Below, piece by piece: positions 27,873 through 33,959 of a DNA stretch of 64,000 nt; position 1 is the stretch's first letter, and every line of letters starts with the position of its first letter. Source of the DNA: an uncultured Chloroflexia bacterium. Lineage in GTDB: Bacteria > Chloroflexota > Anaerolineae > CG2-30-64-16. The stretch spans positions 96,001-160,000 of the forward strand of contig CAWEMM010000008.1 in the NCBI GenBank assembly GCA_963810095.1, written 5' to 3'. The position numbers and the translations under genes are program-made. The notes below the pieces were generated by a model. That model was given only the letters and a program-made list of their open reading frames with translations. It had not been told where the DNA came from and ran no database searches.

Positions 27873-29099
27873 ATGAGCGACGATGTCGACGGAATGGCGG
27901 AGAAGGTTCCGGCGGACGCGTGGCTGAACCGCAACGTGGTCGGCATGGCGCTGGCCAGCTTCTTCAGCGACGCGGGGCACGAGATGGCGACCGCGGTGCT
28001 GCCATTGTTCCTGGTAGCAATCGGCGCACCGGCCGCAGCGCTCGGTGCGATCGAAGGCGTGGCGGACGCCGTCTCCTCCTTCGTGAAGCTGGGCTCAGGC
28101 TGGCTTAGCGACCAACTCGGGCGCCGCAAGCCGATCGCCGTTACGGGGTACGTGCTAACCGGCGTGACGACAGGATTGTTCGCGCTGACAACTACATGGC
28201 CGCAGGTGTTGGTGGTGCGAGCCGCTGGCTGGTTCGGCCGCGGCATGCGCGGTCCAGTGCGCGATGCGATGCTGGCAGATTCGGTTCCTGATGCGGCGCG
28301 CGGTCGGGCCTTCGGCTTCCACCGAGCCGGCGATACACTGGGCGCTATCGTCGGACCGTTGCTCGCCCTGCTCATGCTGCGACTGTTGGGCGGGCGCGAG
28401 ACGCCGGAAACGACCTACCGCCAGATCTTCTGGCTGACTCTCATCCCTGGTCTGCTGGCTGCACTCGCATTCGCAACCTTAGTGAAGGAACAGCGGCGGA
28501 CGGGCAACGGCAAGTTCAACCTGTTCCATGCAATCGGACGGCTCCCGACGCCCTTTCGACGATTCCTCCTTGGGGTAGGGATATTCGGAGCAGGCGACTT
28601 CGCACACAGCTTGCTGACACTCCGCGCCGCGACCATGCTGGCGCCGTCGCTCGGCGTAAACCAAGCTGGCCAGGTCGCAATCGGCCTCTACGCAGTGCAC
28701 AACATCGTCTACGCTGCGCTGTCTTACCCAATAGGCTCGCTCGGAGACCGCATCGGCAAGCGAGGCCTCCTCGCCTTTGGCTACAGCCTCGCGGGCGTAA
28801 TGGCGCTCGGCTGGATCTTCGCCGTGCCCTCAGTCTGGTACCTCGGCGTGTTGTTTGCGCTCGGCGGGGCGTTCATCGCGGCCGAGGATACGCTCGAAGG
28901 CGCGCTGGCCGGAGATCTGCTGCCGGTTGACGTGCGCGGCACGGGCTACGGCGTTCTGGCCACCGTGAACGGCGCTGGGGACTTCCTGTCGAGCCTGCTC
29001 GTCGGCCTGTTGTGGTCGGCCGTGAGCCCTGCCGCCGGCTTTGCTTATGCAGGTGTGCTGGCTCTTATCGGGGCGACCATCGTGTTTCGAGTGCGATAG
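27873..29099 (+). CDS. MFS transporter
   Basis: About 12 TM helices; GWLSDQLGRRK motif A; RGRAFGFHRAGD. Confidence 0.9.
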   Translation: MSDDVDGMAEKVPADAWLNRNVVGMALASFFSDAGHEMATAVLPLFLVAIGAPAAALGAIEGVADAVSSFVKLGSGWLSDQLGRRKPIAVTGYVLTGVTTGLFALTTTWPQVLVVRAAGWFGRGMRGPVRDAMLADSVPDAARGRAFGFHRAGDTLGAIVGPLLALLMLRLLGGRETPETTYRQIFWLTLIPGLLAALAFATLVKEQRRTGNGKFNLFHAIGRLPTPFRRFLLGVGIFGAGDFAHSLLTLRAATMLAPSLGVNQAGQVAIGLYAVHNIVYAALSYPIGSLGDRIGKRGLLAFGYSLAGVMALGWIFAVPSVWYLGVLFALGGAFIAAEDTLEGALAGDLLPVDVRGTGYGVLATVNGAGDFLSSLLVGLLWSAVSPAAGFAYAGVLALIGATIVFRVR

Positions 29100-29152
29100 G
29101 CGAGGAGAAACCAGATGGACGCCAAAGGCGGAATGAATTCGGAGGTTGCTTG

Positions 29153-30735
29153 ATGGCCGTCAGCGTGCCAGAGACTCGGATCAGCACGTCCAAGACGGCG
29201 TTCTGTAGCGTCCTGTTTCTGCGACCCGAGGATAGGACCGAGAGCGAGACGCGCGAGGAGCCGGCCTGCTTCGGCGATCTGAACCTCGACCAGGTCGTCG
29301 ATGCCGTGACAATCGGCAAGCAGGGCTATGACCTCAAACGCTTCTACTATACGCCCTTGCACGACGTGGACGCGATCCAGTACCGCCACGAGGTCATGCA
29401 GGACCTCGAACGCCGGACGCTGTTCGAGAAGATCGAGGAGTTCGCGCGCCGGATGCGGACCATGCGCGAGCATCTCAAGCAGGCCGAGAAGCTGTATTAC
29501 AAGCTGCAGAAGCAGCGCTGGTTCCTGGATGCGGTGAATACGTCTATTGCAGCGCCGTCCAGCCGCCTGGCCGAGGACCTGGCCGCGGAGAATCCGCAGT
29601 CGCGCGGGTTTGGAGCCCTGCGCGCCCACCTCGACGCGTACGTAGCCGGCGAACCTTTCCAGGTGCTCGCGGGCGAACTGCACGAGCTGCTCTCAGGCCT
29701 GGCCGGCGTGCGCTATGCGTTCGTGCTCAAGGGCCAGACGGTGAGCGTGCGGAAGTACGAGGAGGAGACCGACTACAGCGCCGAAGTGCTGCGGACTTTC
29801 GAGCGGTTCAAGCAGGGCGCGGTCAAGGAGTACCTGGCCGAATTTCGCGAGCCAGTGGACATGAACCACGTCGAAGCACAGGTGCTCGAGTTGGTCGCCC
29901 GGCTCTACTCTGACCTCTTTGGTCGCATCGAGAGTTACTGCACCCGGCACGTCGATTTTATCGACGAGGTGCTTGGCGTCTTCGACCGCGAGGTGCAGTT
30001 CTATATCGGGTACATCGACTTCATGCGGTCGTTGCAGCGGCGGGGCTTGCGGTTCTGCTACCCGGTCGTGTCGGCTGACAGCAAGGCTGTATCCAGCCGT
30101 GAAGGGTTCGACGTGGCGCTTGCGCGCAAGCTGGCGGGCGAAGAAGCGAACGTGGTCTGCAACGACTTCAGCATGCAGGGGGTGGAGCGGGTATTCGTGG
30201 TATCGGGGCCGAACCAGGGTGGGAAGACCACGTTTGCCGCGGGCTTTCGGCCAGCTGCACTACCTCGCCAGCATCGGCTGTCCCGTGCCGGGCCGAGAAG
30301 CCCACCTCTACCTGTTCGATCAGCTCTTGACGCACTTCGAACAGGAGGAGAACCTCACTAACCTGCGCGGCAAACTGGAAGACGAACTGGTGCGCATCCA
30401 TGAAATCCTCCAAGCGGCGACGCCGCGCAGCATCGTGATCATGAACGAGATCTTCACGTCGACGACGCTGCAGGACGCGGTCTTCCTGGGCGAGCGGGTC
30501 ATGCAGCGCATCCTCGACCTGGATCTCCTGTGCGTCTGCGTGACCTTCATCGACGAGCTGGCTGCGCTGAGCGACAAGATCGTCAGCATGGTCAGCACCG
30601 TGACGCCGGAGAACCCGAGCATGCGGACCTACAAGATCGTGCGGCGGCGGGCCGACGGGCTCGCGTACGCGATTTCGATCGCCGAAAAGCATCGCTTGAC
30701 CTACGAAGCGTTGAAGGAGCGCCTCGCGACCGTGA
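29153..30735 (+). CDS. MutS-related ATPase A (domain V, no mismatch-binding domain; frameshift near 30240)
   Basis: DLNLDQ N-terminus; [32 protein letters not shown]. Confidence 0.85.
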
Positions 30736-32253: not shown

Positions 32254-32270
32254 ACGCCGGAGTATCGCCC

Positions 32271-33959
32271 TTGGAAACCATTGTCACGGTCCTTCGGGAC
32301 GGCAAGCCGACAAACATCGGAGAGGACGCGCTGCGCAAGGGAGACACCTTGCTCCTCCAGGCGGGCGAACTCGTCGCGGCCGATCTGAAGCTGGTCGGGG
32401 CCAGGGGCCTGGAAGTCGACGAATGGGACCTGACCGGCGAGATCGTGCCCGTTGCGAAGCGCGTCGACGGACACGAGGACGTCTTCGTTTACCGCGGCAG
32501 CCGGGTGACACGCGGGAATGGCAGCGGCGTGGTCACGGCCGTCGGGGAAGCGACAGAGTACGCCCAGTGCGTGAAGCAGTCCTGGGAGCGCACGCGTTAT
32601 CGCCGGCCGTCGGCTCCTCACCCGGGGCTCCTTCGTCGTGTTGGCCCTCCTGGCGCCGCCCTTTGCCATGGCCGCGGTGCGGCACGAGAACGGGATCTTG
32701 CTGGGGCTCCTCGCCGCCGCCTTGGCCGTCCTCGCTGTCGTTCTTGAGAACAGCGCGCTGTTCGACTATGCGGTGACCGGGAAGGAAGTCAGCCGGATCG
32801 AGCAACAGGGCATTCAGATGCGTGACGTTGGTGCACTTGAAGTGATGGAGCGCCTGAATGTCCTGTGCGTGGACAAGACCGGCGTCCTGACGACCCGCGA
32901 CCTGAAGGTGAAGGAGATCTACCTGGCAGATGGTCCCTGCGAGCTGGCGGTACTTTGGCACCAACGAGGAGCCGGCCACGCTGGTCCGCACCGGCTGCGC
33001 GCTCTGCAACGACGTAATGTATGCCGAGAAAGCGAGCCTGGCCGCGCCGATCGATCGGGCCCTCATCGCGTTCGCGCGGGCCAGCGGGACCGACATCGCG
33101 GACGCGCACCAGACCTATCACAGGGTGTACGACAAGCCGTTCGATTCCGAGGAGCGCTACATGGCCTGTGGCTTCGAATCTGGCGAGAAGACCGTGTTCT
33201 TTGCCAAGGGCGACCCGGACGTCGTGCTGAAAATGTGCGGCACGTACAGCACGCCCTCGGGCAGTCAGCAGAAGCTAGACTTGCCTTTCTGGATATCCAC
33301 GCGAACTCATGCCGAATCGATCAGCAAGGCGGGCGACGTGGTCATGGCGCTGGCCTACGGCGTCGGGGGATCGGCGACACCTCCGCTGCACTACACGTTT
33401 CTCTGCCTGATCCAGCTCGAGAATCCGCTTCAGCCAAACGTGCCCGGCACGCTGCGCGAGCTCAGGGGGAGGGCATCCGTACTGTGATGCTGACCGGCGA
33501 TAGGACAGAGACCGCGTCAAAATCGCGGTCGCGGCCGGCATTGCCTCGGACGAGAGGCTGTGTCTGACCGGCCGGCTGATGGCGCACATGGGCGCGTTTG
33601 ATATCCGCGAGCAGGCAACCTTCATCCCCATCTTTGCGCGGCTCCTGCCATCACAAAAGGCGCTCATCGTCAGGCTATTGCAGCAGAAGAACAAGGTCGT
33701 GGCCATGGTGGGTGACGGGGCAAACGACACACTGGCGTTGAAGGCGGCGGACGTCGGCATGGCCTTTGGCAGCGACGCGTCGCCCATGGCGAAGCGGGTA
33801 GCCCCCATCCTCATCAACGACCTGGCCGATCTGGTTACGCTTGTTGAAGGCGGCAGGCGCATTCACGAGCGCCTGGGTGAACTGGCCATGTTCCGGGTCG
33901 CGCTGCTGATCGTGATGTTCCTGGGGCTGTATGGGTGGGTATATAGCTTGTTGAGATAG
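32271..33959 (+). CDS. Atypical, membrane-reduced P-type (HAD-IC) ATPase (several frameshifts)
   Basis: A-domain VLRDG...LTGE, DKTGVLT phosphorylation site, PFDSE, KG, MLTGD, GDGAND; only about 3 hydrophobic segments. Confidence 0.75.

Follow-up and report, generated by a model that had tools for sequence, protein, structure and literature searches.

Within the window, that is, the whole 64-kb stretch of DNA that was analysed, two fluoride riboswitches stand on the forward strand. Riboswitch 1 (21611 to 21693) heads an upstream operon (21702-27644) in which Pfam identifies an enolase, a phosphoglycerate-mutase-like protein, a pyrophosphatase, CrcB, DUF190-CBS and DUF6062 proteins and EamA. 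Riboswitch 2 (27732 to 27816), a linker-hairpin variant, is followed by an intrinsic terminator (27797 to 27837) acting as expression platform, whose 5' arm overlaps the 3' conserved strand of the aptamer. Downstream of it, on the same strand, lie an intact MFS transporter gene (27873 to 29099, with ATG at 27873 in an ORF that also opens at TTG 27849; MFS_1, E 4.7e-38), a gene for a MutS4A-like ATPase with core, clamp and domain V (29153 to 30735), a gene for a MutS4B-like ATPase (30732 to 32251; MutS_V, E 1e-35) and a gene for a three-helix P-type ATPase (32271 to 33959), which has A, P and N domains and equivalents of helices M3, M4 and M5 (Pfam E1-E2_ATPase, Cation_ATPase and Hydrolase). 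These four genes would form the last operon of a fluoride island, a reading that, taken jointly with the function proposed below, we consider slightly better than even. The genes kdpA, kdpB and kdpC are also found within the window.

Riboswitch 2 is real though atypical. At gathering scores, Rfam gave no match in the whole window, and at E ≤ 5 it recovered riboswitch 1 alone (26.7 bits against a gathering score of 34), with no match of the RF01734 model at 27732-27816. The alignment reveals a 22-nt hairpin inserted in the linker of riboswitch 2, which is why the Rfam model stays silent there, and we therefore built riboswitch models of our own. Model R1, whose training set included the window, scores riboswitch 2 at 61.5 bits. 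Model R2, built independently from eight fluoride riboswitches at Rfam gathering level, all of other genomes, finds it with 31.4 bits (E 1.2e-6) and riboswitch 1 with 42.8 bits (E 6.7e-10). Over the whole 6.13-Mb genome, with 150 of 610 candidates scored, the model used for the family loci described below marks only four places, all within the window. The conserved core of the crcB aptamer (GAUGAGGCUC ... CUGAU.GCCUCUAC) and the P1 helix are present, and all 25 invariant columns are common to riboswitch 2 and four gathering-level fluoride riboswitches. The terminator has a 15-pair stem with nine G-C pairs and a loop of six, followed by the T run TTTTTGTTGT. Judged by its sequence, 27732-27816 is thus a fluoride riboswitch of the crcB motif, though below the Rfam gathering score, and is predicted to switch transcription upon binding fluoride. 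The placement of these genes under such a riboswitch in a preliminary description of the locus is borne out by the aptamer and overlapping terminator that precede the MFS gene. In relatives, MFS and MutS4 genes likewise stand downstream of gathering-level fluoride riboswitches.

The assembled reading frames do not follow these gene boundaries. A single 942-aa ORF (29919 to 32747) runs through the C-terminal part of MutS4A, all of MutS4B and the A domain of the P-type ATPase, as described earlier, and Pfam places two MutS_V domains and one E1-E2_ATPase domain in it, with Cation_ATPase in 32930-33487 and the Hydrolase tail in 33579-33959. All ORF and domain positions of that description, including MFS_1, were recovered in this way, and its suspicion that single indels had joined separate genes proved well founded. 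By tblastn of orthologs and mapping of the 562-aa ortholog P0020, we locate seven single-base indels within 4.8 kb (at about 30237, 30727, 32238, 32610, 32950, 33464 and 33516), with conserved coding on both sides of each. MutS4A orthologs follow frame 2 up to about 30325 and then frame 3 up to 30725, with a surplus base near each of 30237 and 30727 breaking the frame in the assembly. Once the latter base is removed, the TGA stop of MutS4A (30733-30735) overlaps the GTG start of MutS4B (overlap GTGA). MutS4B is open to about 32238, and if one base there is extra, its expected stop is the TAG at 32249-32251. The internal starts noted earlier are present, namely GTG at 30732 (RBS GAAGGAG) and TTG at 32271 (RBS GGAG). 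Four of the indels split the P-type gene into five frame pieces (32280-32609, 32611-32949, 32954-33469, 33463-33522 and 33516-33953), which cover residues 5-561 of P0020 at 55-80% identity.

Six of the seven breaks are covered by related contigs, while that at about 32950 rests on frame mapping. These short-read contigs come from relatives in public runs, not from reads of the source sample, and the matching runs share small fractions of words with the window (0.06-0.10), with some bins lacking informative cover. Compared with them, the assembly has an extra base at 30237, at 30727 (two contigs) and at 32610, and it lacks a base after each of 33464 and 33516. At about 32238, one related contig has one base fewer, and a contig of another run covers the place without that difference. 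We conclude from these comparisons that consensus errors very probably account for the 942-aa ORF, a product of single indels, and for the scattered frames of the P-type gene. The reading that the frameshifts are real, and that MutS4A and the P-type gene are pseudogenes of a decaying island, would draw on the density of breaks, on the origin of the contigs in relatives and on family copies elsewhere that carry a stop (in frame, in the cultured carrier Ornatilinea apprima P3M-1) or are split (three copies). We regard it as highly improbable, since none of the pieces contains an in-frame stop or has lost residues, all of them keep their ortholog identity, and a 255-letter contig that spans the 33464 and 33516 sites, differing from the window by two letters and two gaps, carries both missing bases. 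Furthermore, unrelated window genes are split in the same way (an ABC ATPase, KdpB, KdpD twice and DUF190-CBS), and the genome, with 16 contigs and 88.5% completeness, fits an unpolished long-read bin.

The two MutS proteins fit the published, unexplained MutS4A and MutS4B, adjacent paralogs that have the MutS ATPase domain and no mismatch-binding domain (Lin, Nei and Ma 2007, PMC2190696; Kim et al. 2017, PMC5742357). This assignment is a sequence-based fit to the published description. Pfam gives MutS_V only for the pair, domains I and II being absent, and the MutS4B model aligns to the core, clamp and ATPase parts, in agreement with the initial observation that mismatch-binding domains are missing. 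Equally, the Walker B motif reads NE rather than DE in both proteins, as first seen in the window, and is invariant in relatives (28/28 MutS4A and 31/31 MutS4B rows). Such an Asn-Glu Walker B, which corresponds to that of the D693N mutant of E. coli MutS (structure 3k0s, according to its title), occurs here naturally and may affect magnesium binding. MutS4B (P0001) is 60-65% identical to orthologs of 497-523 aa, and its AF2 model (pLDDT 80.4) has the MutS/MutS2-core fold, aligning over core, clamp and ATPase with MutS2 of Thermus thermophilus (7vuf) and with Bacillus subtilis MutS2 on collided ribosomes (7qv3; TM 0.46-0.54 on target, E about 1e-16); unlike MutS2, it has no Smr nuclease or KOW domains. 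The stop of MutS4A also overlaps the start of MutS4B by four bases in two relatives. The window pair is an ordinary member of the subfamily, whose operon here also includes the MFS gene and that of the three-helix ATPase. A role in DNA repair was considered, and nothing beyond the fold speaks for it here. That MutS-related genes occur near fluoride riboswitches without an explained function, as the early description states, is already in print: Weinberg et al. 2010 (PMC2864571) name mutS among the genes next to the crcB RNA motif.

The P-type ATPase is the new part of the locus. A full-text literature search, with the gene lists and supplements of Baker et al. 2012 and Chan et al. 2010 outside its scope, returned no truncated P-type ATPase and no P-type ATPase in a fluoride regulon, and PMC11777429 contains nothing on this ATPase family. 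The window translations show TGE, DKTG, TGD and GDGAND, as had been read from the frame pieces. We obtained 198 matches in a family search, mostly 531-588 aa long, and among 110 full-length members the motifs are nearly universal (TGE 109, DKTG 110, TGD 109, GDGxND 108). Three members score 169-175 bits with TIGR01494 (P-type superfamily, HAD-IC) against a cut-off of 62.3. Family members cross the membrane with three hydrophobic helices, the PEGL and CPC motifs are absent, and Pfam finds neither Cation_ATPase_N nor Cation_ATPase_C in them. The membrane reduction first noticed in the window (no N-terminal helices, no PEGL/CPC motif, about three TM segments) therefore holds across the family, and by its sequence the window gene belongs to a conserved three-helix family of about 560 aa in which this reduction is conserved rather than a sign of decay. 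Neither an ordinary 10-TM pump nor a decayed pseudogene devoid of conserved synteny was found: the frame-corrected gene encodes about 562 aa with three helices, in conserved synteny.

The family AF2 model (pLDDT 85.3, pTM 0.75) has helices at residues 118-137, 141-159/161-178, with a break at Asn160, and 519-561. A near-invariant Gln-Asn pair lies at this break in M4 (Gln159 in 99 and Asn160 in 107 of the 110 members), together with Leu-Leu-Pro (104/101/106), Arg542 (106) and Tyr554 (107). These intramembrane residues are about as conserved as the catalytic ones, and besides Gln-Asn and Tyr554 there are few conserved polar residues in the membrane part. The idea of a "soluble-type" P-ATPase fails, because the three helices are kept with their near-invariant residues.

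Across 39 family loci (41 found, two weak ones dropped; a sample drawn by two peptide patterns, not a census), a riboswitch or another fluoride-island gene is present in 37. In 25 of the 39, a same-strand fluoride riboswitch heads the co-directional run to the P-type gene, and in 11 it lies less than 250 nt upstream of that gene, including loci of Bathyarchaeota and Asgard archaea. Three of these 11 direct cases reach the Rfam gathering score (one locus each of Bathyarchaeota, Sigynarchaeum and Chloroflexi) and two are weak (22.6 and 22.7 bits, E about 0.002). Carriers include low-energy anaerobes of the Anaerolineae, Bathyarchaeia and syntrophic Bacillota. The MFS subfamily of the window stands downstream of fluoride riboswitches in 16/39 loci. 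A joint pump of MFS and ATPase was considered; the two genes are adjacent in only five riboswitch-MFS-ATPase runs, apart from one locus with the riboswitch between them and another with the MFS gene downstream of the ATPase.

The MutS4 pair lies within 10 kb of the P-type gene in 24/39 loci, and MutS4B is encoded elsewhere in the genome in six of 10 further family genomes, compared with 7/40 class relatives. This co-occurrence, far above the frequency of MutS4 in related genomes, ties the MutS4 pair to the P-type family. One could take it to mean that MutS4A, MutS4B and the ATPase form one physical machine, with MutS4B possibly fused in frame to the ATPase here, as the single frame of MutS4B and A domain in the window and the recurrence of the order MutS4A-MutS4B-P-type in eight loci (gaps of about 70-150 nt) might suggest. 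We find this improbable. In 11 loci the P-type gene is found by itself, downstream of a switch of its own, so that an obligate three-part machine is not indicated; MutS4B was not found in four of the 10 further family genomes; and MutS4 pairs are widespread without this ATPase. A fused protein of the kind raised by the early reading did not emerge from the homolog check either: none is found among 205 longer relatives (985 aa or more), the 120 of these that were listed include no MutS_V and reach 32% identity at best, being ordinary long P-type pumps, and in the window an RBS and TTG start precede the A domain. Since fluoride riboswitch islands are modular, the linkage of riboswitch and MutS4 genes to the ATPase shows a shared regulon, not a shared mechanism, and such a regulon explains the linkage.

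From the anatomy and conservation of the family and its linkage to riboswitches and MutS4 genes, we infer the activity, substrate and partners of the ATPase as follows. Fluoride would bind the aptamer so that the overlapping terminator cannot form, and the resulting read-through would express four separate genes, for the MFS protein, MutS4A, MutS4B and the P-type ATPase of about 562 aa. The latter keeps the whole cytoplasmic engine, with DKTG and its phosphorylated Asp, the TGE loop for dephosphorylation and the nucleotide-binding domain, on a membrane part reduced to M3, M4 and M5 with the Gln-Asn pair where M4 unwinds. It may act independently within the fluoride regulon, passing through an ordinary phosphoenzyme cycle at the membrane and most likely powering the export or handling of fluoride, or of protons entering with HF, with the Gln-Asn site and extra helices supplied by copies of itself or by another membrane protein. 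This account of operon and ATPase is the one we lean towards, with modest confidence, and an ATP-driven membrane module for fluoride stress is our best guess for the family.

A more specific version, in which the three-helix protein drives a primary pump that uses ATP to move fluoride (or HF/protons) and would be the first anion-handling P-type ATPase, seems unlikely to us. Gln-Asn at the unwound M4 and Tyr554 would then bind the ion, and oligomers or a partner, for example CrcB or the MFS protein linked to the riboswitch, would supply the missing helices. Two copies of P0020 residues 105-562 folded together scored 0.00 in both runs, a control-free value to which we attach no weight for or against this version. 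A pump of this kind would suit low-energy anaerobes, because their weak membrane potential may not suffice for a passive channel. To our knowledge, no P-type ATPase has been reported to act on anions.

Just as unlikely, in our estimate, is a role as sensor, decoy or regulator of the fluoride state, in which metal fluorides would lock the phosphorylation site in an E2-P-like form and the helices would do no more than hold the protein in the membrane or relay the signal to a second membrane protein. The P-type gene stands under a fluoride switch, the ion-site helices are absent from the family, and solved P-type pumps are routinely trapped with AlF or BeF (entry titles 9kci, 8qmp and 7efm). A mere trap would not need the TGE loop, required only for turnover and kept in 109/110 members, and an anchor would not need Gln-Asn, Leu-Leu-Pro-Pro and Tyr554 to be conserved like catalytic residues. 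Moreover, a decoy binding ions protein for ion cannot buffer much fluoride, and sensing is already done by the riboswitch.

Known fluoride defence relies on passive or proton-coupled exporters (Fluc/CrcB, CLC-F) and on extra copies of enzymes sensitive to fluoride, and P-type ATPases are classic targets of metal fluorides. A conserved P-type family found repeatedly behind fluoride riboswitches in two domains of life is a new candidate protein for the fluoride field and may hint at a response to fluoride that has so far escaped notice. For the P-type field, it offers a natural minimal form, raising the question of what the cytoplasmic cycle is still capable of once the usual transport domain is missing.

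With respect to known systems, the solved structures most similar to the ATPase are those of P2 pumps at least 859 aa long, compared with about 560 aa in the three-helix family, the closest cation pumps being LMCA1, the Listeria Ca2+-ATPase (PDB 6zhf, 6zhh, 9euq), and SPCA1. The A, P and N domains and M3-M5 of the family align with LMCA1 over residues 113-700 of 880 (E 6e-58), in an alignment that leaves out M1 and M2 and stops within M5. The fold matches E1 states of P2 pumps at TM 0.73-0.77 with all catalytic motifs in common, whereas the N-terminal segment, M1, M2 and M6-M10 are absent, M4 has Leu-Leu-Gln-Asn in place of a PEGL-type motif and control is by a fluoride riboswitch. The NCBIfam equivalog cut-offs for P2A calcium pumps are not reached (TIGR01522, 223-229 bits against 798.3; TIGR01116, 140-147 against 703.4). 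With three helices only, the family does not have the six-helix M1-M6 transport core with its M4/M5/M6 ion site. In every solved pump that we know of, M1, M2 and M6 form the ion site, and we know of no P-type pump that works with three helices; both points weigh against the account favoured above. KdpB has seven helices and a canonical site, and no constant membrane partner, as in KdpFABC, was found for the three-helix family in the 39 loci. KdpB is nevertheless a precedent for a P-type engine that does not pump by itself: its membrane part is reduced, and within KdpFABC it drives transport through a different subunit.

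The region from 27.7 to 34.0 kb on the plus strand, part of a genome of 6.13 Mb in 16 contigs (~64% G+C), consists of an RNA element (27732-27816) with a strong terminator (15-pair stem, 27797-27832, T run after it) and four separate genes: an unbroken MFS gene (27873-29099; MFS_1, E 4.7e-38), two genes for MutS domain V proteins and, at the end, a P-type ATPase gene lying in pieces in three reading frames. Rfam at gathering scores finds no family in the 64-kb window, and at E ≤ 5 the sole match is a sub-threshold fluoride riboswitch at 21616-21688 (26.7 bits versus a gathering score of 34). 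The element at 27732-27816 aligns with four gathering-level fluoride riboswitches found in relatives, sharing every invariant column and differing by a hairpin inserted in the linker. An independent model (R2), trained only on eight gathering-level riboswitches, all from other genomes, recovered four elements in the window: 21611-21693 (+; riboswitch 1; 42.8 bits, E 6.7e-10), 27732-27816 (+; riboswitch 2; 31.4 bits, E 1.2e-6), 41290-41375 (+) and 41154-41228 (−; R2 match 41165-41214), the last two each with 32.4 bits and E 6.3e-7. Our first model (R1), which had the window in its training set, pointed to the same four places only over the whole 6.13-Mb genome (150 of 610 candidates scored). 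The R2 score, the shared invariant columns and the terminator bear out the preliminary description, which had placed a fluoride riboswitch upstream of the MFS gene. Since riboswitch 1 heads an upstream operon (enolase, phosphoglycerate-mutase-like, pyrophosphatase, CrcB, DUF190-CBS, DUF6062 and EamA), the operon under riboswitch 2 is the second of a fluoride island.

The other two riboswitches stand back to back. The one on the minus strand heads MoxR AAA (40102-41079), DUF58 (38873-40105) and unknown genes, and a locus in a related genome (G033) likewise has DUF4129, MoxR and DUF58 downstream of its MutS4 pair. The one on the plus strand heads an unknown 229-aa ORF (41405-42094), which resembles a 335-aa ORF following MutS4B in another relative, G016 (27.5% identity, E 2e-13). 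Upstream of the island, a cluster at 2342-21162 resembles arsenic and sulfur handling, with two ArsR regulators, two ArsP-type permeases, low-molecular-weight phosphatases (arsenate-reductase-like), a double methyltransferase, thioredoxin-like proteins, FmdE and TauE.

A 942-aa ORF (29919-32747) does span the C terminus of the first MutS protein, the whole second one and the A domain of the ATPase, and the suggestion that single indels could split it is supported by ortholog frames and by contig bases. Orthologs from related genomes, mapped on the window by tblastn, place a single frame change near 30237 in the first MutS gene, which loses its stop through an additional base near 30727, and show the second MutS gene open along its whole length. 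The ATPase corresponds to residues 5-561 of P0020, a 562-aa ortholog, in five plus-strand pieces of 55-80% identity (32280-32609, 32611-32949, 32954-33469, 33463-33522 and 33516-33953), with zero residues lost at any joint. When contigs from four public sequencing runs were aligned to the region, relatives of ~93% identity had one base fewer than the window at 30237 and 30727 (runs X2 and X5) and at 32610 (X2 and X7). One base fewer at 32238 was found in X2 only, X5 spanning the position without that change. A 255-letter X7 contig, two letters and two gaps away from the window, is one base longer at two sites, with a G added after 33464 and a C after 33516, exactly the changes that restore the ATPase frames; the break near 32950 is covered by no informative contig among the four runs. 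Once the surplus base at 30727 is taken out, the first MutS gene ends in a TGA that overlaps the GTG start codon of the second at 30732, the same arrangement as in relatives. Without one base near 32238, the second MutS gene ends at TAG 32249-32251 and, given this stop, the ATPase starts at TTG 32271 with GGAG just before it; this junction is the least secure spot of the reconstruction. The frame breaks are very probably errors of the assembly consensus. Frequent single-base indels seem assembly-wide and may also depress the completeness score, with DUF190-CBS (24639-26016), an ABC ATPase (34001-35193, −) and KdpB (56746-59128) also frame-split, and KdpD (59944-62645) split twice.

With respect to the wider occurrence of the ATPase, two peptide patterns searched against one genome per prokaryote species (a pattern-chosen sample, not a census) gave 41 loci, of which 39 were kept after the weak L058 and L059 were dropped. 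Most belong to Anaerolineae and other Chloroflexota, the remaining hosts being Bathyarchaeia, a Woesearchaeota bin, the Asgard bin Sigynarchaeum, several Bacillota and a Bacteroidales bin. R1 found 79 matches in the 792 kb of loci and window, with at least one in 30/39 loci, and at 25/39 the ATPase is the last gene of a co-directional run that opens with a riboswitch on the same strand. The riboswitch lies directly upstream (<250 nt) in 11 loci, while the intervening genes are a small CBS gene (2 loci), MFS (5), MutS4A and MutS4B (5), MFS and two MutS4 pairs (1) or enolase (1). Among the 11 direct cases, three attain gathering level in Rfam (the loci of Bathyarchaeota and Sigynarchaeum and one from Chloroflexi), two are weak (E about 0.002) and two (L019 and L024) belong to genomes closely related to that of the window and do not count as independent cases. 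Either a riboswitch or some other gene of the fluoride island (enolase, CrcB, DUF190-CBS, MutS4, the MFS subfamily, DUF6062 or a dynamin-like GTPase) is present in 37/39 loci. Fluoride riboswitches repeatedly precede the ATPase, which is often the sole gene of its unit.

Recurrent members of these fluoride islands are DUF6062 and one MFS subfamily (window, 26464-27144; L020, L022, L024, L025, L026, L028, L033, L035 and L056), the latter almost always immediately 3′ of its own riboswitch. A dynamin-like GTPase gene lies directly 3′ of the ATPase in L028 (11794-13515), L029 (11738-13471) and L040 (11751-13550), and two c-di-GMP-I riboswitches (12031-12113, +; 13164-13247, −) closely follow the riboswitch-ATPase unit of L055, a Bacillota bin.

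Both MutS proteins have MutS_V as sole Pfam domain and score far under the NCBIfam cut-offs for MutS1 and MutS2. The predicted model of the second (pLDDT 80.4, pTM 0.80) aligns to MutS over the core, clamp and ATPase regions and also to the core of MutS2. The two proteins agree with the account of MutS4A and MutS4B given by Lin et al. 2007 (PMC2190696), who describe them as adjacent paralogs with the ATPase domain only and an A stop overlapping the B start; the assignment is one by description. A MutS pair behind a fluoride riboswitch is already known and not new here, Weinberg et al. 2010 (PMC2864571) having listed mutS as one of the genes that follow the crcB motif; Kim et al. 2017 (PMC5742357) describe raised recombination in Mycobacterium smegmatis with a MutS4 operon, and an island that also includes an enolase gene. 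Tandem duplication (A-B-A-B) occurs in G016 (L013/L019) and L025, and L021 has two pairs ~3.5 kb apart with CrcB and DUF190-CBS between. The Walker B reading of Asn-Glu holds in 28/28 MutS4A and 31/31 MutS4B rows. Magnesium coordination is reportedly lost in the E. coli MutS D693N mutant. The natural MutS4 motif equals that mutant, solved as 3k0s (entry title), and we speculate that a MutS4 ATPase without the usual magnesium hold might escape magnesium-fluoride trapping.

A MutS4 pair, whole or in part, lies within 10 kb of the ATPase in 24/39 loci. Ten of the other 15 genomes were checked: MutS4B is found elsewhere in six and has no match in four, where incomplete bins cannot show absence; an ortholog occurs in only 7/40 class relatives of the window's genome. 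An obligate complex of the ATPase with MutS4 appears quite unlikely. A natural MutS/P-type fusion, raised by the preliminary description, was not seen: none of the 120 listed relatives of at least 985 aa has a MutS domain (best identity 32%, among only the 8000 scored candidates sharing most words).

The membrane-reduced ATPase with its catalytic motifs proved to be a family. A database search with a related genome's ortholog gave 198 matches at E ≤ 1e-5, the best 120 of which are nearly all 531-588 aa, have the Pfam domains E1-E2_ATPase, Cation_ATPase and Hydrolase, and are named in their sources as generic calcium or magnesium ATPases or "HAD-IC family P-type ATPase"; in NCBIfam the family passes the generic P-type model only, with zero equivalogs. 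Full-length members retain TGE (109/110), DKTG (110/110), TGD (109/110) and GDGxND (108/110), along with Leu127, Leu128 and Pro129 of the first helix (104, 101 and 106 of 110), Gln159 (99/110) and Asn160 (107/110) of the second, and Arg542 (106/110) and Tyr554 (107/110) of the third. The AF2 model of P0020 (pLDDT 85.3, pTM 0.75) has complete A, P and N domains and long helices at 118-137, 141-178 (broken at Asn160) and 519-561. In the only cultured carrier found, Ornatilinea apprima P3M-1 (L031, NZ_LGCL01000023.1), a fluoride riboswitch of gathering level and a small CBS gene precede the ATPase gene, which is intact except for an in-frame stop (10865-10867 of the locus) at the position of the conserved YDKPFDSE lysine.

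The closest solved relatives are P2 pumps. Residues 113-700 of the 880 of Listeria LMCA1 align, from just past M2 through M5 (E 6e-58), and E1 states of pumps of at least 859 aa match the P0020 model with Foldseek TM 0.73-0.77; the three helices of the family are therefore M3, M4 and M5. The P-type engine of the family is complete in its catalytic parts and under purifying selection, and the membrane part consists of three helices, with two adjacent conserved polar residues where M4 unwinds.

Judging from its motifs, the protein would cycle through an aspartyl-phosphate, since TGE is needed only for turnover, and we consider it unlikely that it serves as a sensor, decoy or regulator. The Gln-Asn site probably matters in the membrane, and we infer that the ATPase acts on fluoride stress. 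A transport-linked role is our tentative preference, with roles outside those listed here a lesser possibility. As an ATP-driven membrane module, the ATPase may export fluoride, or protons carried in by HF, and would have to borrow helices from its own copies or from another protein. Ordinary pumps have PEGL at the place where the M4 helix of the family breaks. KdpB requires KdpA, and offers a remote precedent for a P-type ATPase that relies on another protein.
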